A DNA stretch of 64,000 nucleotides from an uncultured Candidatus Saccharibacteria bacterium. Lineage in GTDB: Bacteria > Patescibacteriota > Dojkabacteria > SC72. The stretch is from contig CAZUOO010000001.1 in the NCBI GenBank assembly GCA_964621555.1, positions 1,059 to 65,058 of the forward strand, read 5' to 3'. Made by a program: the position numbers and the translations under genes. Shown one piece after another: positions 2,161 through 64,000 of this stretch; the stretch's first letter is position 1, and each line of letters opens with the position of its first letter. The notes beneath the pieces were generated by a model. It did no database searches and had not been told where the DNA came from. It saw only the letters and a list, made by a program, of their open reading frames with translations.

Positions 2161-3848
2161 AAGTCGCAGAGCCTATCCTTATTATCTATTTCAAAGATAA
2201 AGAAGCTGTGACCAAGTTCTCGTACTGGTTCAATCTCATTTGCAAAGAATTTATACCTCAAGCATACTTGCCACTGTTCCAACTTCTTAATATTTGTAGA
2301 AAGCATTTCCTTGGGGTATACAACGTAATTTGTATTTTGAAGCTCTCGCTCCTCTCTTTCAAGTAGGTGATTTTCCTGTCTCCAATCAAAATTACTATCC
2401 TGCAAGTATAGGTAATTATATTTCTCCTGTCCTACAACTTGGTTAAAGTATGCAATGTAGATTGGATAGTGAGTAACAGAAAGGAATATATGTGAAGCAA
2501 TTAGTAGTCCAACTGTATATTTATACCAGCTGAGGTTTTTAAACTTCTCGTATAGCGAAACTATTACGAATGCAGATGCAAGGGTTAAAAAAGGATATAC
2601 AGGGAGCAGATGACGTATTCCAATGTTTATTGAACTTGAAAGCGAAAGTAGGGTTAAGACCACAGGAATGGTTATCAAAGGTAGTAAAACGGGCCTCTTG
2701 TTGATTATGTTCTCTCTATTTCTATATGCTAACGCACCCATATATATGGCTGTGAACACACTTATGATGATGAATGGAACAGTTTCCTTCGCAAGAAATG
2801 CTATTGGGAAGTATAGTGGATTTCCTCCATTGCTAGGTTGTCCCAAAAGATATGTTCTGTGCCCGTGGAAATTATGCTTAACCACGTTATCATAGAATCC
2901 TTTAAAGTACTGAGGGAAAGGTAGTTTAACATCTTTATATATTGATTCTAGGAATTCTAGTTTGATAAATGGAACAATCCGCTCAATTGTACTAAGGTGG
3001 TCCATAGTTGCTTCGATCTTACCTGGATTGTTGTAGTCAACTTCATAGATTGTGGCAAAATTAAATCCGTAGGCGGCCGTTAACAGAAAGAGTATTGATA
3101 TAACGATACCTACAGTTGATAGTGCAACCGCTTTTATTGAATGTCCAAAGCTCTTATACCTCACAAATATATACGTAAGTAGCCAAAATGGAAGGAGCAA
3201 TGTGGCCGTATATTTAGTAATTAAAGCTACTAGAATTAAGATGATACTTAGCCATGGTTTATGCTTCGAATTATTCTGCGTTAATCGAAGGTCGTGATAG
3301 AGAGCGAGGGTTGCAAGAAATATTGTAAACATTGCTGGAGCGTCCGTAGTTACTAAACCAGAGTGGGCAATTAGGGTAGGGGAGAATGCTAGAAGGAGTG
3401 TTGATATAACTGTTCGTCTGAAGCCGAAATTAATATAGAGTAGTTGGTAGATTATAAAAAGCATAGTAGCGGAGAGCAACGATGCCGTAAAACGGCCATT
3501 AACTAGAAACTCTAGAGAATATGTTTCTCTTCCTCCATTGAGCTCCACTAATCTGAATGCAATATCATCCTTTTTAGCTTGCTCCCAGTTCTCACTATCA
3601 AGGTCTTCAATTACAAAGCTTTTATCTGCTGAAATTGGTATCGAATGTAATATATTAAAGAGAATAGGGTGGTGCTGGTTTATTCTATAGTCTCCTGTAC
3701 GTAGTAACATAACCCCTCTGGCGGTATGACTCACTTCATCCGTTGTATAGGATAGATCTTTTACAGATCCAAACGAGAGTAAGAAGAATGCTAACGATAT
3801 CGTTAATGGAATTAACAAACGCTTTAGGACAGTTTTAAACTTTGTCAT
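2157..3848 (-). CDS. GT-C fold membrane glycosyltransferase (ArnT/PMT-like, GT39/GT83 family)
   Basis: 563-aa polytopic membrane protein with an ArnT/PMT-like topology. It lies convergent and adjacent to the GT2 and flippase-like genes. Confidence 0.55.
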   Translation of the reverse strand: MTKFKTVLKRLLIPLTISLAFFLLSFGSVKDLSYTTDEVSHTARGVMLLRTGDYRINQHHPILFNILHSIPISADKSFVIEDLDSENWEQAKKDDIAFRLVELNGGRETYSLEFLVNGRFTASLLSATMLFIIYQLLYINFGFRRTVISTLLLAFSPTLIAHSGLVTTDAPAMFTIFLATLALYHDLRLTQNNSKHKPWLSIILILVALITKYTATLLLPFWLLTYIFVRYKSFGHSIKAVALSTVGIVISILFLLTAAYGFNFATIYEVDYNNPGKIEATMDHLSTIERIVPFIKLEFLESIYKDVKLPFPQYFKGFYDNVVKHNFHGHRTYLLGQPSNGGNPLYFPIAFLAKETVPFIIISVFTAIYMGALAYRNRENIINKRPVLLPLITIPVVLTLLSLSSSINIGIRHLLPVYPFLTLASAFVIVSLYEKFKNLSWYKYTVGLLIASHIFLSVTHYPIYIAYFNQVVGQEKYNYLYLQDSNFDWRQENHLLEREERELQNTNYVVYPKEMLSTNIKKLEQWQVCLRYKFFANEIEPVRELGHSFFIFEIDNKDRLCDF

Positions 3849-6063
3849 TACTAATAATTTCAGATTTACTATCTATTGGGTATGTTATATATAGTTGATG
3901 TAGCGCTCTAGTTGCCGCTACATAGAACTTTCTTGCACTACTAAAATTGGCTGGATATAGGTTTATATCTAGATCAAGTATGAATACTGTATCAAACTCC
4001 AATCCTTTCGCATTTAGAACAGGTGTTACGATTATACCAGATGAATAGTTCGAGCTATCCATCTCTACTAAATATTCAGAAATTGTTGGGATTGCTTTAA
4101 GTTTATTGTATACGTTTGATGCTGTTTCCATGTCGGGGGTTACAACTGCGATTGTATTCCTATTTAGTTTTAACTCTATATTTAGATATTTTACGAGATC
4201 ATCGATAGTTGTATCCTCGCTTGTAAGCAATGTACGGGTTGGAATCTCGATCACATCATTACCATGTCTAAGCACGGCCTCGGGTCTAAGAAAAGTTTTA
4301 GGAAATAGATTTTCAACCTTTTCTTTAATATAGTCGATTATTTCAATTGTAGTTCGATAGCATTTATTAAGTTGGTGGTACTCGAATTTTTGCAAATCAG
4401 GTTTTAACTGCTTGAGTGTATCTATTAGTTCAATCCAATCGTCAATATTATTAGGATCCTTGATTGCCTGTGCTAGATCACCCGCCAACATCAAATTATT
4501 ACGCCTTGAAATCAGTAGAAGGGAGAATATCTGAGGGAATGAAAGGTCCTGTGCCTCGTCAGCTATTACATAATCCTTCTGGAACTCTGTCGTACCGTTA
4601 AGAAGAAGGCTTAAGATTGCAAGTGGGGCTAAATCTTCCATTTCATAGGTATAGAATCCCTTTACCTTCCTAACCATTTTCTTTGTTCTTTCCTTTATAT
4701 CACTTGGGATACTCATGTCATTTACAATTGATTTGTAGATATTGAGCAGGTTTAATTTTTCTCTGAAGTATTTAATAATTTTTTCTTCAATTACCTCATC
4801 CAAAATCGAAATTCCTTGCATGTATGATCCAACAGTACTGTTTTTAATTAGTAGGTCGGATTTAACTTTCTCAACTGCTAGCTTTAGAGCTTCGGAAGTT
4901 GTAACTGTATCTGTTTTTCTTTTAATGTCGTAGTAGTTACGTTGTATAAGGTCGGATTTTGAATATGGGATCTCTTCGAGCAGTGTTTCAATGTAATTAT
5001 TGAAGCCTTCTACAAGTGAAACAAGGAACTCTTTAGAACCCTTAAACTTAATGGATTGTCTATCAGGTTTCGCACTAGCAAGTATATATTTATTATCCCA
5101 TTTCAATATTTTCTTTGCCCAGAATAGATATGTGTTGGCCTCTACGCCATCTATGCCTAGAGAGGGGAGCACTCCTGAAATATAATCCAGAAATAGCTTA
5201 TTAGGGGCGATGATTAACGTATTCTTGGCGCTGATGTGTTTTTGATACATGAAGAAAAGGTACGCCAGTCTGTGTAGTACAATTGTTGTTTTACCACTAC
5301 CTGCTACTCCTTGTAGTACGGTTAGTTTATCGATATCATCTCTAATAATTCTATTCTGCTCACCTTGAATTGTAGAAACGATATCTGTTAATTTCTGTCC
5401 TACCTTCTGATTAAGTTGTGAAAGGAGGAATTCATCGGCGGCAGTATTACCTGTTTTGGAATCGTATACATTCTTAATTCTAGCCTTAGAGATCTCTAAC
5501 ATCTTCTTTTCTGTAATGTCTCCTTTCTGGCTACCCATGGGACTTACAAATTCCACATCACTTGTTGGTCCTGAGTTTGTATAGTATAGGTTGGCGATAG
5601 GGGCTCTCCAATCCGTAATAAGTGATGATTTTGTCAACTTATCGAAATATGCAAACTTCCCGATGTATGAAGTGATTTTCCCCGCAGGAAACGTTGAGTC
5701 AGCTTTTCTATTGAATACAATCTTACCAAAGTATGGAACATCTAGAATATCTAGTTCGTGATTTAATCTATTTACACAATCCTGTATCTGTTTAAGTATC
5801 TGATTATATATCTTTACAGCTGCTGATTTATCATCACCAGTTTCATTTTCAACAACTAGTACTTGCTTCTCTAATTCCTTCTCAAGCTCTTCCAAATGGT
5901 TGAGGAGATATTTAATCTGTTCGGTTACAGTTTGAGTTGTAGTTTTGAGGTATGGATACTCTACCTTTATGGTGTCGTTAAGAGGTTCTTTTATATCTGA
6001 ATAATCGGATATAGTATCAACCTTGTTTATTAGGGGATTAAGGTGCTCCTTAAAAGTTAGCAT
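3835..6063 (-). CDS. helD: HelD-like (helicase IV) UvrD-family helicase
   Basis: HelD N-terminal motifs PYFGKIVF, YIGKFAYFD and ITDWRAPIANLYY, followed by Walker A GVAGSGKTT and motif II ADEAQDLS. Confidence 0.75.
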   Translation of the reverse strand: MLTFKEHLNPLINKVDTISDYSDIKEPLNDTIKVEYPYLKTTTQTVTEQIKYLLNHLEELEKELEKQVLVVENETGDDKSAAVKIYNQILKQIQDCVNRLNHELDILDVPYFGKIVFNRKADSTFPAGKITSYIGKFAYFDKLTKSSLITDWRAPIANLYYTNSGPTSDVEFVSPMGSQKGDITEKKMLEISKARIKNVYDSKTGNTAADEFLLSQLNQKVGQKLTDIVSTIQGEQNRIIRDDIDKLTVLQGVAGSGKTTIVLHRLAYLFFMYQKHISAKNTLIIAPNKLFLDYISGVLPSLGIDGVEANTYLFWAKKILKWDNKYILASAKPDRQSIKFKGSKEFLVSLVEGFNNYIETLLEEIPYSKSDLIQRNYYDIKRKTDTVTTSEALKLAVEKVKSDLLIKNSTVGSYMQGISILDEVIEEKIIKYFREKLNLLNIYKSIVNDMSIPSDIKERTKKMVRKVKGFYTYEMEDLAPLAILSLLLNGTTEFQKDYVIADEAQDLSFPQIFSLLLISRRNNLMLAGDLAQAIKDPNNIDDWIELIDTLKQLKPDLQKFEYHQLNKCYRTTIEIIDYIKEKVENLFPKTFLRPEAVLRHGNDVIEIPTRTLLTSEDTTIDDLVKYLNIELKLNRNTIAVVTPDMETASNVYNKLKAIPTISEYLVEMDSSNYSSGIIVTPVLNAKGLEFDTVFILDLDINLYPANFSSARKFYVAATRALHQLYITYPIDSKSEIISNDKV

Positions 6064-60087: not shown

Positions 60088-60513
60088 ATGGCAGAACTAA
60101 AAACCAAACCCACTAACCAAAGCGTTATACAATTCATAGAGAGTATATCGGACGCGACGAAACGAGATGATTGTATGACGATACATAATATGATGACAGA
60201 AATCTCTCACACTGCACCTAAGATGTGGGGTACCAATATTATTGGCTACGACCTATACAGCTATGAGTATGCATCAGGTAGAAAAGGGGAGTGGTTCATA
60301 ATTGGTTTTTCACCTAGAGTATCGGCCTTAACATTATACTTAATGAGTGGATATGAACATTTCCCCGAAACACTTTCTAAGCTAGGTAAGTATAAGGTGG
60401 GCAAATCCTGTCTCTACATTAAGAAACTTTCAGACATAAACATAGAGGCATTAAAAGAACTCATAACCAAATCATACCTACACCTTAAAAAAGGAGATAA
60501 GCCACAATACTAA
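60088..60513 (+). CDS. DUF1801 (YdhG-like) domain protein
   Basis: Fold-family resemblance only (KTKPTNQSVIQFIESI... layout). Its stop overlaps the sufC ATG. Confidence 0.4.
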   Translation: MAELKTKPTNQSVIQFIESISDATKRDDCMTIHNMMTEISHTAPKMWGTNIIGYDLYSYEYASGRKGEWFIIGFSPRVSALTLYLMSGYEHFPETLSKLGKYKVGKSCLYIKKLSDINIEALKELITKSYLHLKKGDKPQY

Positions 60514-61187
60514 TGCTACAAGCAAATTTCAAGCAAATACTCGTAAACAACACCCCACTACTACACGATATTAACATTGAGATACACAGTGGCAAGGTAA
60601 CAACAATCCTTGGGCCCAATGGATCAGGAAAGAGCACAATTGCAAAAACGATACTAGGATTTCCACATATAAAAGCAGAAGGGAAAGTGGAAATGGATGG
60701 TATAAATATAACCAACCTTCCACTTCATAAAAGAGTACAGGAAGGAATATATCTAAGTCACCAATCTCCAAGCGGTATATCTGGAATTAGACTATCCTCC
60801 TTCCTAAGAACTGCATACCTACAAATGAATTACATCGATCCAAAACTTGACCTACTATCTTTTAGGAAAGAAATGGTAGTTCAGATGAAAACACTAGGCC
60901 TCAAACAAGATATATTAGACAGAGAGCTTCATGTAGGATTTTCGGGAGGAGAGATGAAAAAAATCGAATTCCTTCAACTAATACTCTTCAAACCGAAATA
61001 TGCAATACTAGACGAGATTGACTCTGGCTTAGATATAACAGCTAGAAAGGTTATATTTGAAATCATTAAACAACTTAGTATCGAAGGGATGGGGTTTTGC
61101 ATAATTACACACAGAGAGAATATTGCCAATGAACTACCAATAGATAAGCAGTACAACTTAGGTGGTGGCACAATTACCCATGAGTAA
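60513..61187 (+). CDS. sufC: Fe-S cluster assembly ATPase SufC
   Basis: Walker A GPNGSGKST, SufC-type signature GFSGGEMKKIEFLQL and Walker B ILDEIDSGLD. Confidence 0.85.
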   Translation: MLQANFKQILVNNTPLLHDINIEIHSGKVTTILGPNGSGKSTIAKTILGFPHIKAEGKVEMDGINITNLPLHKRVQEGIYLSHQSPSGISGIRLSSFLRTAYLQMNYIDPKLDLLSFRKEMVVQMKTLGLKQDILDRELHVGFSGGEMKKIEFLQLILFKPKYAILDEIDSGLDITARKVIFEIIKQLSIEGMGFCIITHRENIANELPIDKQYNLGGGTITHE

Positions 61188-62508
61188 CTACACATTAAGT
61201 CCAGAAACAATAACTGAAATATCTAGGCGGAAGGAAGAACCAAGTTGGATGCTTGAAGTACGGCTAGAAGCCCTAGAAACCTTCAAAACTATGCCAAATC
61301 CACAATGGGGACCAGATATATCCGAAATAGATTTCAACAAAATACAATATTACACACCTGGGGAAAGTACCAAATCAGCTTGGGAGAGCATACCTCAAAA
61401 GATACTAAATGATTTTGAGAAGATTGGAGTACCACAACGAGAAAGAAAGTTTCTAGCAGGGGTATCTACACAGTATGACTCTGAAATTATATACCACAAC
61501 TTTAAAAAGAGATTTGAAAACACTGGAGTAATATTTGAGAGCATAGAAAATGGTCTAAAAAAATATCCCCACATATTTAGGGAATACTTTGGGAAAATTA
61601 TAAGTGCAAAAGATAATAAATATGCAGCACTAAATACCGCCTTCTGGAGTGGAGGAAGTTTTGTCTATGTTCCTAAAGGTATAAAGCTTGTGTTACCAAT
61701 TGAAACATACTTTAGAATTAACGCCAAGGCACTAGGACAATTTGAAAGAACTCTAATTATAGCTCAAGAGAAATCCTCCATACACTATATAGAAGGCTGT
61801 ACCGCACCTCAATACCTAGCATCATCCCTCCACTGCGGAGTTGTAGAGATATTTGCAATGAAACAATCACACGTAACATATACAACCCTCCAAAACTGGT
61901 CTACAAATGTCTATAACCTTGTAACAAAAAGAGCACTTGCTAAAGAAGAAGCTTTGGTAGAGTGGGTAGATTGCAATATTGGCTCAAAGATAACTATGAA
62001 ATATCCCTCGGTAATACTAGAAGGGGATAGATCAGTAGGAAAGCTAACATCGTTAACTCTAGCTTCAAATGGTCAGCAGATAGATTCAGGGGGGAAGATG
62101 ATACACATTGGCAAGGAAACCCAAAGCATTATTCGCTCTAAGACTGTATGTTCAAATGGTGGTACAGCCACGTATAGAGGACTTTCCAAAATAACGAAAG
62201 AAGCCAACAATAGTAGGGCGTTTGTAGATTGTGACTCACTCATTCTAGATATACACTCTAAATCTCTCGCAATACCAGAGGATGTAGTCGAAAATAGTAG
62301 CTCAGTGTTTGAGCACGAGGCATACATATCAAACATATCTCAAGACCAACTTCATTACTTAATGTCCAAAGGAATCTCTGAAGATCGTGCCCGAGATTTA
62401 ATAGTACAAGGGTTTGCGGAATCAATAGTGCAACTACTACCAAATGAATATTCCGTTGAACTTGAACGAATACTATTTCATTTTAGCAAGAAGGAAGGAT
62501 ATGAGTAA
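61180..62508 (+). CDS. sufB: Fe-S cluster assembly protein SufB/SufD family (probably SufB)
   Basis: AFWSGGSFVYVPKGIKL and C-terminal LHYLMSKGISEDRARDLIVQGF. The start is trimmed to the MSNY overlap (ATGA) with sufC. Confidence 0.75.
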   Translation: MSNYTLSPETITEISRRKEEPSWMLEVRLEALETFKTMPNPQWGPDISEIDFNKIQYYTPGESTKSAWESIPQKILNDFEKIGVPQRERKFLAGVSTQYDSEIIYHNFKKRFENTGVIFESIENGLKKYPHIFREYFGKIISAKDNKYAALNTAFWSGGSFVYVPKGIKLVLPIETYFRINAKALGQFERTLIIAQEKSSIHYIEGCTAPQYLASSLHCGVVEIFAMKQSHVTYTTLQNWSTNVYNLVTKRALAKEEALVEWVDCNIGSKITMKYPSVILEGDRSVGKLTSLTLASNGQQIDSGGKMIHIGKETQSIIRSKTVCSNGGTATYRGLSKITKEANNSRAFVDCDSLILDIHSKSLAIPEDVVENSSSVFEHEAYISNISQDQLHYLMSKGISEDRARDLIVQGFAESIVQLLPNEYSVELERILFHFSKKEGYE

Positions 62509-62956
62509 TAGAGAAGTAAAAGTATTACAAATAGACAGAATCAAGAATGAAAGGGTAGTGAGAATCACCAAAGACAGCGAGTACATACTAAAGTGTAACC
62601 CAAATACTACTGGTGAGTACACTCTTAAGTTCATCCCAATTGCAGAGGATATCACAATAAATGTTAGACTTAACGCATACTTAGAGCATAATTCTCACCT
62701 CACTCTTAAAATAATCTTCCAACAGGTAAACAAGTCCAATAACTTCAACTACCTATTTAATGGAAAGATAATACTTTTTGACGATAGTAAAGCTAAAGTA
62801 TTTCCAATAATACAAACCCAAGGGAATATGGCTACAGCCAACCATAAATTATCAATAGGGGGGATTGATCCAAATACAATAGAATACCTATCATCGAAAG
62901 GTCTATCAAAACTAGAGATTGAAAGTATTATAAAAAGTGAAATAGATGGACTTTAG
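62501..62956 (+). CDS. Truncated SufD-like protein (~150 aa)
   Basis: The C-terminus ANHKLSIGGIDPNTIEYLSSKGLSKLEIESII resembles the SufB/D C-terminal helices, but the protein is about one third of normal SufD length. ATGA overlap with sufB. Confidence 0.5.
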   Translation: MSNREVKVLQIDRIKNERVVRITKDSEYILKCNPNTTGEYTLKFIPIAEDITINVRLNAYLEHNSHLTLKIIFQQVNKSNNFNYLFNGKIILFDDSKAKVFPIIQTQGNMATANHKLSIGGIDPNTIEYLSSKGLSKLEIESIIKSEIDGL

Positions 62957-63657
62957 TAGTTTCTAACCACTACCTTATCTACATACTTAGACATGATACT
63001 TGCAAACTCATTTAGCTCTCCTTCATTAAAACTATTACTATTATCCAAACTCATATCTATTGACTTTCCACTTCTAAAATTCTGAATGTAATATATTGGA
63101 GATCCCTTCACCAACTTCCCAATCTCTTCCATTATCTTAGTATTGTGCATACCTTTAACTACCGTAGTTCTGAACTCATACTCCACCCCAGAGTTTTTCA
63201 ACATATCGATAGTCTCTTTGATATTCTGTGATTTCATTCCACCATTCACCCCCTGTTTATACATTTCATCCTCATATTTAACATCCATCGCCCAGTAATC
63301 AACCAAACCAGTTTCAAGAATTTCCGCGACCTTAAGAGGAAAGGTACCGTTGGTATCCAGTTTAATTTGCAATGTTGGTACCTCAGTACGTACTCTAGAT
63401 ATGAAAGGTATTAGGTCTTTATGTACAGTTGGTTCACCACCAGTAATTACAAATCCGTCTAACTTACTTTCCCGCTCTTTCAAGAACTGCACGACCTCAT
63501 CTTCTGTGATGATGTTCTCTTCCTTCAATTCCTCAGTCACTAATTCAGGATTATGGCAGTATGGGCATCGCAAATTACAACCGTATGTAAAAGCGACCGC
63601 CGCCACTCGGCCTGGAAAATCAAGAAGGGTGAGTTTTTCTAGGTGTTGTATTAACAC
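62953..63657 (-). CDS. nrdG: Anaerobic ribonucleoside-triphosphate reductase activating protein (radical SAM)
   Basis: LLDFPGRVAAVAFTYGCNLRCPYCHNPELV, GTG start. Confidence 0.85.
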   Translation of the reverse strand: MLIQHLEKLTLLDFPGRVAAVAFTYGCNLRCPYCHNPELVTEELKEENIITEDEVVQFLKERESKLDGFVITGGEPTVHKDLIPFISRVRTEVPTLQIKLDTNGTFPLKVAEILETGLVDYWAMDVKYEDEMYKQGVNGGMKSQNIKETIDMLKNSGVEYEFRTTVVKGMHNTKIMEEIGKLVKGSPIYYIQNFRSGKSIDMSLDNSNSFNEGELNEFASIMSKYVDKVVVRNY

Positions 63658-63659
63658 GG

Positions 63660-63806
63660 TTATTTAGTCTTAGTAGCTGTTGCTACAAAAGTCTTTCTAT
63701 CTATATACTCTGACTTCTTCCCTTTGTTCCATTGCTGTACAGGCCTAATATATCCAACCACTCGTGAATATACCTCACACTTTTGTCTTTGCATTGTCTT
63801 TTTCAT
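63660..63806 (-). CDS. Stand-alone 48-aa ORF encoding the NrdD-type C-terminal glycyl-radical peptide
   Basis: MKKTMQRQKCEVYSRVVGYIRPVQQWNKGKKSEYIDRK... contains the RVxGY glycyl-radical motif and the WNxGK tail normally contiguous with the NrdD C-terminus. It lies 3 nt upstream of the nrdG start. Confidence 0.5.
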   Translation of the reverse strand: MKKTMQRQKCEVYSRVVGYIRPVQQWNKGKKSEYIDRKTFVATATKTK

Positions 63807-63831
63807 CTAACTATATAAATAATGTTAAATA

Positions 63832-64000
63832 CTAATCTTTATAACCGATTTCGATATCACACTTAGGACAGAATTCATGTTCTCCATTTAAATACCCATG
63901 CTTAGGACAAATACTAAATGTAGGGGTAATTGAAAAGTATGGGAGTGCATAGTTTGTAGCGACCTTTTTTACAAAACTCTTGGTAGCTTCAACATCTGGC
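63832..64000 (-). CDS. nrdD: Anaerobic ribonucleoside-triphosphate reductase NrdD, C-terminal part (5' end outside the window), ending after the Zn ribbon
   Basis: ...ATNYALPYFSITPTFSICPKHGYLNGEHEFCPKCDIEIGYKD* is the characteristic NrdD Zn-ribbon region. TAG stop at 63832..63834. Confidence 0.7.
   Translation of the reverse strand, partial: PDVEATKSFVKKVATNYALPYFSITPTFSICPKHGYLNGEHEFCPKCDIEIGYKD

Follow-up and report, generated by a model that had tools for sequence, protein, structure and literature searches.

The glycyl-radical loop of class III ribonucleotide reductase as a separate gene in Dojkabacteria and other lineages

To our knowledge, all glycyl radical enzymes characterised to date have their radical-bearing domain on the catalytic chain itself. 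In the class III ribonucleotide reductase (RNR) NrdD, a surface Zn ribbon follows the last barrel strand and precedes the C-terminal Gly loop, which reaches down into the barrel; for activation, the buried Gly has to leave the barrel (PMC4493059). Spare-part proteins are known only for pyruvate formate-lyase (PFL), and for other glycyl radical enzymes they were called an open question in a review of June 2026 (PMC13450708). Here we describe a locus at the end of a 64,000-nucleotide (nt) stretch of DNA (hereafter the window, the whole stretch analysed; contig CAZUOO010000001.1 of assembly GCA_964621555.1, from an uncultured Candidatus Saccharibacteria bacterium that GTDB places in the Dojkabacteria), in which the glycyl-radical loop RVxGY is not on the NrdD polypeptide and sits on a separate open reading frame (ORF), a mini-gene between nrdD and the activase gene nrdG; the same is seen in relatives. 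From sequence comparison we consider it very probable that this locus encodes a two-polypeptide class III RNR, in which the mini-protein would be an obligate subunit: translated separately, it would bear the radical once NrdG had activated it, and would dock non-covalently.

Anatomy of the split locus

The three genes lie on the minus strand. The window edge cuts nrdD, the gene of the class III RNR large subunit, down to its 3' end (63832..64000), that is, the last 55 codons and the stop TAG (63834-63832); entered at 63999, the frame reads PDVEATKSFVKKVATNYALPYFSITPTFSICPKHGYLNGEHEFCPKCDIEIGYKD and then the TAG, with the translation up to the stop running through ICPKHGYLNGEHEFCPKCDIEIGYKD and the product terminating in CPKCDIEIGYKD. 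This C-terminus holds the Zn-ribbon ligands CPKH-x10-CPKC (63859..63909; ligand codons TGT 63909-07, CAT 63900-898, TGT 63870-68 and TGT 63861-59), which align to the CxxxH-x6-CxxC Zn site of T. maritima NrdD, and a short tail, DIEIGYKD (63835..63858), which carries the pattern CxxC-[DE]-x-x-x-G-[YFW]. An A/T-rich spacer of 25 nt (63807..63831) separates the nrdD stop from the mini-gene (63660..63806), which runs from an ATG at 63806 to a TAA at 63662-63660 and encodes a stand-alone glycyl-radical loop protein of 48 amino acids (aa), MKKTMQRQKCEVYSRVVGYIRPVQQWNKGKKSEYIDRKTFVATATKTK, with RVVGY at residues 15-19, the radical Gly18 encoded at 63755-63753, and WNKGK at residues 26-30. An initial annotation of this DNA had claimed that nrdD ends in TAG directly after the Zn ribbon and that a 48-codon ORF with its own ATG, 25 nt downstream, carries both RVVGY and WNKGK, and the sequence and its translation bear this out. 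The radical-SAM activase gene nrdG (62953..63657; 234 aa; matches to Radical_SAM, Fer4_12 and TIGR02495) starts with a GTG at 63657, 2 nt past the mini-ORF stop and not 3 nt as first noted, and its product scores 180.7 bits against the NrdG2 model TIGR02495 (cut-off 131). The mini-ORF is in frame +1 relative to nrdD. Since, in the mini frame, the stop nearest upstream (TAG 63809-63807) still sits 3' of the nrdD stop, and the third frame is stopped too, fusion by a single indel is impossible; that stops in all three frames keep the pieces apart had been argued from the start.

Together, the two pieces account for a conventional NrdD. Against the Pfam profile NRDD (PF13597), the nrdD fragment matches positions 482-528 (E=6e-13) and the mini-ORF positions 530-562 of 562 (E=3e-10); because these matches abut, no profile segment is lost between them. 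The mini matches PF13597 alone in Pfam (E<=1), with no match to PF01228. A complete large subunit is found on a 9.5-kb contig, L001, which also carries the best match to the mini (92% identity). It is an intact protein of 680 aa with an ATP-cone and NRDD, in which an MCCR finger motif is seen in the alignment; it covers positions 1-528 of Pfam NRDD and positions 4-649 of the 684 in NCBIfam NF006126 (1001.9 bits, cut-off 548), the mini taking up 649-682 of the latter, and where it overlaps the window fragment a single residue differs (F/Y). Class II RNR models reach only 14-27 bits with the large subunit, via the ATP-cone. At the same time, residues 103-608 of T. maritima NrdD (4COI) align to the large subunit, ending at the Zn-ribbon CPVC, and residues 610-644 align to mini residues 7-41, so that Gly18 falls on the radical Gly621; the Gly of RVVGY is invariant in 44/44 aligned minis. 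Given this surface position of the Zn ribbon, with the last barrel strand before it and the Gly loop after it, the cut falls at a natural hinge.

Relatives, selection and spread of the split

Exact-sequence look-ups of the window NrdG and of the mini-protein matched no record. The closest relatives (Dojkabacteria/WS6) were found to be split too, with other spacers and frames among them, which answers the proposal of the initial annotation that homologous genomes be searched for the same arrangement. L001 has the order nrdD (680 aa), mini (48 aa), nrdG (234 aa), followed on the opposite strand by a sufD-like gene, sufB and sufC, as in the window, with a gap of 25 nt between nrdD and the mini. 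A 721-kb contig of WS6 GW2011_GWF2_39_15 (Dojkabacteria; L002) again has the window layout, with a large subunit that ends in CDIEIGYVDLNLSI and, after a spacer of 5 nt, a mini whose relative frame is another one; the large subunits of L001 and L002 are 81% identical in amino acids over 680 aa. By these matches the window most likely belongs to a Dojkabacteria genome, and the split is older than the divergence of these three genomes. Differences between the window and L001, counted by codon position, are 0/1/11 for the end of nrdD, 2/2/11 for the mini and 5/5/61 for nrdG. For the mini, the Nei-Gojobori method gives 11 synonymous against 4 non-synonymous changes (8 against 0 in a core of 33 codons), and the ratio of non-synonymous to synonymous rates (dN/dS) is about 0.04-0.07, or 0.038 against L002. 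Third-position bias and low dN/dS argue that the mini-ORF is a gene that is translated and strongly constrained by purifying selection. In the window, sufC (60513-61187), sufB (61162-62508) and a short SufD-like ORF (62444-62956) lie on the plus strand and converge on nrdG (60513-62956 in all); this neighbourhood is common to L001 and L002, and places an Fe-S assembly system next to a [4Fe-4S] radical-SAM activase.

Beyond these relatives, stand-alone minis are widespread. A search of 5.8 billion proteins, of which the best 120 matches were inspected, returned among these only proteins of 39-80 aa with a Met start, some on contigs of up to 2.9 Mb, from Dojkabacteria, Parcubacteria, metagenome-assembled genomes (MAGs) labelled as Saccharibacteria, Nanoarchaeota/DPANN, Synergistales and others. 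A profile-free exhaustive scan of 1.84 billion cluster representatives gave 3416 matches, the best 150 all of 41-123 aa. Fourteen positions are invariant among 44 diverse minis, the core C-EVYSRVVGY is kept in 243/251 short homologues, and identical mini sequences recur on up to 35 contigs. Scanning GTDB with one genome per species, we found at least 596 matching species, and the layout was classified for the best 80 of these loci. A stand-alone mini is present in 32 of the 80 (~40%). The order nrdD-mini-nrdG accounts for 25 loci and nrdD-nrdG-mini for three; one combines a decayed in-cis domain with an 87-aa gene, and in three the context of the mini is not resolvable. Contiguous NrdD is found at 37 loci, contiguous NrdD with an extra radical-domain gene at six, and longer orphan fragments at five.

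Junctions and gene orders vary considerably. Across the 32 split loci, adjacent genes lie between -29 and +187 nt apart, and each of the three relative frames is represented. The order nrdD-nrdG-mini was seen in a 2.9-Mb Synergistales-type genome, in Pyramidobacter, in the cultured Halanaerobium saccharolyticum (NZ_SNWX01000002.1, with the mini at about 88210-88368 as derived from L046) and in a Bacillota MAG. In a Falkowbacteria genome, a 48-aa mini lies just after mraZ-rsmH (L177 and L178, 10001-10147; also L033, 3986-4132), with neither nrdD nor nrdG within 10 kb, so the radical peptide can be fully unlinked from its partners; this mini sequence was seen on at least 24 contigs. A DPANN archaeon has the mini inside an operon nrdR-nrdD-mini-nrdG-dCMP deaminases-dcd-thyX-thioredoxin. 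Because junctions vary and genes are permuted or unlinked, frameshift, bypass, read-through and assembly error are not general explanations. With the L001 large subunit, contiguous relatives share 55-57% identity, a range into which split forms of other phyla fall as well; a neighbour-joining tree places split forms in several clades, with deep branches too poorly resolved for fission events to be counted from it.

Split large subunits carry a signature of their own. Contiguous relatives read CPKC-VIEQKC-EVYSRVVGY across the region of the cut, whereas split large subunits end in CxxC-[DE]-x-x-x-G-[YFW] followed by a variable acidic tail, and the minis begin with M-x(2-20)-[RK][QT]x-C-EVYSR. 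This tail motif is present in 23/32 split large subunits but in 0/39 contiguous NrdDs, and it occurs in Dojkabacteria, other members of the CPR (candidate phyla radiation), DPANN and Synergistales, a spread suggesting that most split forms descend from one origin or else have a need in common, perhaps that of holding the peptide. The Cys before EVYSR was considered as a split-specific Zn ligand between subunits and rejected, being conserved alike in contiguous forms (243/251 vs 37/41), and is hence a trait of the subfamily. Split inteins were rejected as well: the tails measure 8-77 aa, and the window tail and mini N-terminus are unconserved beyond DxxxG[YFW], no intein-domain search having been run on the tails. 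Many minis and extra proteins (P0004, P0019, P0027, P0064, alignment A2) and contiguous NrdDs (L023, L034, L050, L078) end in a Cys pair (CC, CxC or CGC); the window mini has no such C-terminal pair. Insertions of ~1 kb interrupt nrdD in L011 (2091-3068) and also in L022, L042, L043, L051, L065, L066, L085, L151, L154 and L158. The L011 insert separates the two Cys of the MCCR finger motif and resembles intein-splicing and LAGLIDADG domains (Pfam scores just under the curated cut-offs), and by this likeness inteins also appear to be present in some split large subunits.

Furthermore, a second layout pairs an intact NrdD with a gene of 81-88 aa, bearing its own CxxC...CxxC Zn ribbon and a second RVVGY loop, followed by nrdG. 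We found it at six GTDB loci and in L093 and L095, the extra genes lying at 4190-4450 in L013, 4243-4497 in L027, 4250-4504 in L028, 4234-4479 in L031, 3863-4126 in L053, 4215-4478 in L088, 4001-4261 in L093 and 4001-4267 in L095. Within one genome, the cis and the extra loop are identical at 23-27 of 29 residues and have lineage-specific residues in common, and synonymous sites between them are near saturation (proportions of synonymous and non-synonymous differences, pS and pN, of 0.5-0.9 and 0.04-0.12). With pS near saturation and pN low, both copies must be old and both maintained. For the extra gene compared between two related genomes pN/pS is 0.019/0.455, and the family comprises at least 120 clusters with full-length matches. 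These comparisons indicate that an intact NrdD with an extra 81-88-aa gene is a genuine spare-part layout. The extra proteins often end with a C-terminal Cys pair. AlphaFold2 models an 86-aa member with a predicted local distance difference test score (pLDDT) of 79; a Foldseek comparison of this model with the PDB gave nothing below E=0.06, its top matches being generic Zn-ribbon ribosomal proteins and uninformative. A possible link between the two layouts is Moranbacteria GW2011_GWA2_39_41 (L072, about 3700-4129), in which the in-cis loop is decayed and truncated (ending CPKCKAEQSSTVYLKVVMAD) and the downstream 87-aa gene with Zn ribbon and radical loop is intact, plausibly an intermediate on a duplication-then-loss route from cis plus extra copy to split.

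Relatives of the mini are also encoded on 453 IMG/VR viral contigs. The best 80 of these loci (L097-L176) hold mostly orphans of 40-77 aa (for example L101, about 3980-4180, and L099, about 4001-4130), and for most of them no nrdD or nrdG was detectable within 4 kb. Neighbours that were checked are phage genes of replication, lysis and particle structure, among them DnaD/DnaC-like loaders, an HNH endonuclease, an endolysin, a baseplate protein and a head-tail adaptor; one subgroup has the distinctive N-terminus NGDLxLDNGxIIPAxKR, and no PHROGs family covers the viral minis. ANMV-1 (KP703175.1), a virus of anaerobic methanotrophic (ANME) archaea of methane seeps, encodes a stand-alone protein of 144 aa with Zn ribbon and radical loop (AJP62049.1; L091, 3186-3620), annotated as 'anaerobic ribonucleoside triphosphate reductase' and without NrdD within 3.5 kb; proteins of 110-116 aa resembling it occur in L076, L086, L127, P0195 and P0215. 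Several CPR genomes and one viral contig moreover contain orphan ORFs of 145-153 aa (L035, 3689-4126; L038, 3450-3905; L087, 3686-4147; L150, 153 aa, ending near 4120), in which a Lys-rich N-terminus precedes the final ~100 residues of the NrdD barrel, followed by Zn ribbon and radical loop, with no nrdD core or nrdG nearby, and these may be a longer kind of spare part.

Proposed mechanism and competing explanations

For activation, docking, catalytic competence and repair advantage we infer a mechanism from homology and comparative genomics. The large subunit (~680 aa, judging from L001) would comprise an ATP-cone, an alpha/beta barrel with the MCCR finger loop and a surface Zn ribbon, where it ends, and the 48-aa mini would correspond to the loop at the C-terminus of an ordinary NrdD, which reaches into the barrel and bears the glycyl radical. 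The mini-gene would be translated independently from an A/T-rich leader, possibly coupled to nrdD termination; NrdG would then abstract the C-alpha hydrogen of Gly18, and the loop would be held non-covalently in the barrel of the large subunit, where the radical would generate a thiyl radical and start the reduction of nucleoside triphosphates. Cleavage by O2 at the glycyl radical would then cost a 48-aa peptide and not an enzyme of ~730 aa, and a fresh copy could be loaded. Short peptides that imitate the Gly734 loop are reportedly activated by the PFL activase (Frey et al. 1994; Vey et al. 2008). An autonomous glycyl-radical protein for class III RNR, as the initial annotation suggested, is favoured by the conservation of the mini, by purifying selection, by the permuted and unlinked gene orders and by the exact complementarity of the pieces.

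Some observations weigh against a two-polypeptide enzyme. There is no Shine-Dalgarno motif in the spacer between nrdD and the mini, and a scan of 62700-64000 for promoters and terminators found sites no commoner than in shuffled sequence and none in the minus-strand spacer. With the last 55 nrdD codons in view, the integrity of the large subunit is taken from L001, and this genome is seen through a 64-kb window only, which leaves room for a contiguous NrdD or another RNR class elsewhere. Moreover, AlphaFold2 gives for the mini alone a helical model of low confidence (pLDDT 62.6, predicted template modelling score 0.30), which fits folding upon binding without proving it. As to the missing motif, a Shine-Dalgarno-like sequence precedes only 4/59 large ORFs (>=120 aa) of the window, so a motif-free spacer is normal here. 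In many window ORFs the start codon is preceded, at a distance of 10-25 nt, by an A/T-rich, TATAAT-like sequence, a pattern suggestive of short-leader or leaderless mRNAs in this organism. The spacer differs between the window and L001 at 2/25 positions, against 24% at third codon positions (P=0.04). Its motif TATTTAA[A/C]ATTATTA recurs in the nrdD-mini spacers of several Dojkabacteria (63807-63831 of the window, and L001, L026, L032, L042 and L058), where it could act as a promoter inside the operon or in the initiation of translation.

Among the alternatives, the one that survives best, and which we still regard as improbable, is that the mini serves mainly as a spare part or regulator for a contiguous NrdD encoded elsewhere, or else keeps a radical in store for some other enzyme, with the truncated NrdD beside it inactive or used in a different role. 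Intact NrdD together with an extra radical-domain gene does exist in related genomes, and orphan minis occur in phages and Falkowbacteria. The adjacent large subunit, however, is under purifying selection, as seen in its differences by codon position and in the identity between L001 and L002. Its Zn ribbon is retained, as are, judging from L001, the ATP-cone and the MCCR finger motif, and it has gained the tail motif of split forms, which the 39 contiguous NrdDs lack. Furthermore, the synteny nrdD-mini-nrdG is conserved, once inside an operon for the synthesis of deoxynucleoside triphosphates (dNTPs), and in Dojkabacteria genomes, smaller than 1 Mb, a redundant second NrdD would be unlikely. 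Because the adjacent large subunit is without a radical domain, the mini would be obligate rather than spare at this locus. The likeness to GrcA/YfiD drawn in the initial annotation therefore holds for the small stand-alone radical ORF and fails for the spare-part role, the partner having no radical domain of its own, and for the family, the mini not belonging to PF01228.

Recoding, by which a frameshift, a bypass as in T4 gene 60 or read-through would join the ORFs into one conventional NrdD, is in our judgement very improbable. The ORFs are adjacent, 25 nt apart here, and in L025 the mini follows directly after the stop and in frame, as recoding would have it; but among relatives the mini stands in relative frame 0, +1 or +2, anywhere from a 29-nt overlap to a 187-nt gap, and almost all minis have their own ATG straight after an in-frame stop. 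In the window several stops lie between the ORFs in every frame, and a bypassing ribosome that resumed at the GAT overlapping the ATG would run into a TGA. Elsewhere nrdG lies between the two genes (five loci), or the mini is unlinked from them (Falkowbacteria). A bypass of the gene-60 kind was rejected on the window sequence and the variable junctions. Least probable of all, to the point of being barely credible, is the reading of nrdD as a pseudogene, or of its stop and spacer as a fault of assembly or sequencing, with the 48-codon ORF as a decaying remnant, since, although a stop codon does break a normally single reading frame and lesions could lie upstream of the nrdD 3' end seen in the window, the split recurs in independent assemblies and distant lineages with differing junction sequences, the changes in the mini are mostly at third positions with low dN/dS, C-EVYSRVVGY is kept in nearly all short homologues and the same minis recur on many contigs, the L001 large subunit is an intact, high-scoring ORF, and the close relatives share the split, none of them showing the contiguous NrdD expected if this locus alone were broken.

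Returning to the two-polypeptide enzyme, we tentatively hypothesise, with somewhat less than even confidence, a wider principle, namely that in the lineages concerned the class III RNR glycyl radical sits on a freely exchangeable peptide of 40-50 aa, a replaceable protein cofactor that would be charged off the enzyme by NrdG, loaded into any large subunit and discarded after O2 damage, serving as obligate subunit, as spare part (the 86-aa form of Moranbacteria and Parcubacteria) and as phage auxiliary gene.

Significance and comparison with known systems

In the searchable literature neither a split NrdD nor a spare part or autonomous radical domain of the NrdD type turned up, nor is there any NCBIfam or PHROGs model for these proteins, and source databases annotate the minis and extra proteins as 'anaerobic ribonucleoside-triphosphate reductase' or 'hypothetical protein'. 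A large RNR phylogeny dropped sequences shorter than 400 aa (PMC9531940), a filter that may explain why split forms were missed. Class III RNR, an essential and ancient enzyme, is found widely in several forms: the loop may be a gene of its own, may be backed up by an extra copy, or may be encoded by phages. If the exchangeable-peptide hypothesis is true, it would provide the first spare-part system outside PFL and a two-component class III RNR, and the phage minis would sustain dNTP synthesis in the host. If the biochemistry of the two-polypeptide enzyme holds, it would provide a natural system for how activases reach a buried glycine and would point to a cheap strategy of O2-damage repair for the small-genome organisms of the CPR and DPANN; the phage minis would be a new class of auxiliary gene. 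For annotation it would mean that a 680-aa NrdD without the radical Gly is not broken and that 'fragments' of 40-90 aa are genuine genes. The idea can be tested in cultured carriers, among them Halanaerobium saccharolyticum.

The closest described counterparts are GrcA/YfiD of E. coli and Y06I of phage T4, which, like the mini, are small stand-alone proteins with an RVxGY loop. For GrcA/YfiD and the mini alike, a cognate radical-SAM activase presumably performs the activation and the protein presumably enters the enzyme barrel in trans, and both have a phage-borne version, T4 Y06I for PFL and the viral minis for the NrdD type. GrcA, however, has ~127 aa, is a homologue of the PFL C-terminus (PF01228) and backs up an enzyme with its own radical domain, whereas the window mini has 48 aa, matches PF13597 only and stands beside a partner without a radical domain. 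T. maritima NrdD (PDB 4COI/4U3E; NrdDh subclass, SCCR/MCCR motif) belongs to the same family and has the ATP-cone, the barrel, the CC finger loop, the Cys/His/Cys/Cys Zn ribbon, the Gly loop and an adjacent NrdG, and the large subunit of L001 shows the NrdDh-like group's MCCR finger motif. A contiguous NrdD, however, is one polypeptide with the linker CPKC-VIEQKC-EVYSR, in place of which the window has the tail DIEIGYKD, a stop, a spacer, a start and the new N-terminus MKKTMQRQKC.

Two further RNR systems distribute their parts over two chains. Split NrdJa/NrdJb is known in Pseudomonas aeruginosa (Crona et al. 2015, as cited in PMC9669993), and NrdJb carries IscU-like and Zn-finger domains (PMC9669993). 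As in the window, an RNR chain is there encoded by two genes with a C-terminal module on the second; unlike in the window, the enzyme is a B12-dependent class II RNR and the part split off is not the radical-bearing element. Class I RNR, with its alpha and beta subunits, likewise keeps a stable radical on a polypeptide apart from the catalytic barrel. Its beta subunit, however, is a ferritin-like metalloprotein from which the radical moves by long-range proton-coupled electron transfer, whereas in the enzyme proposed for the window the radical residue itself would sit in the barrel.

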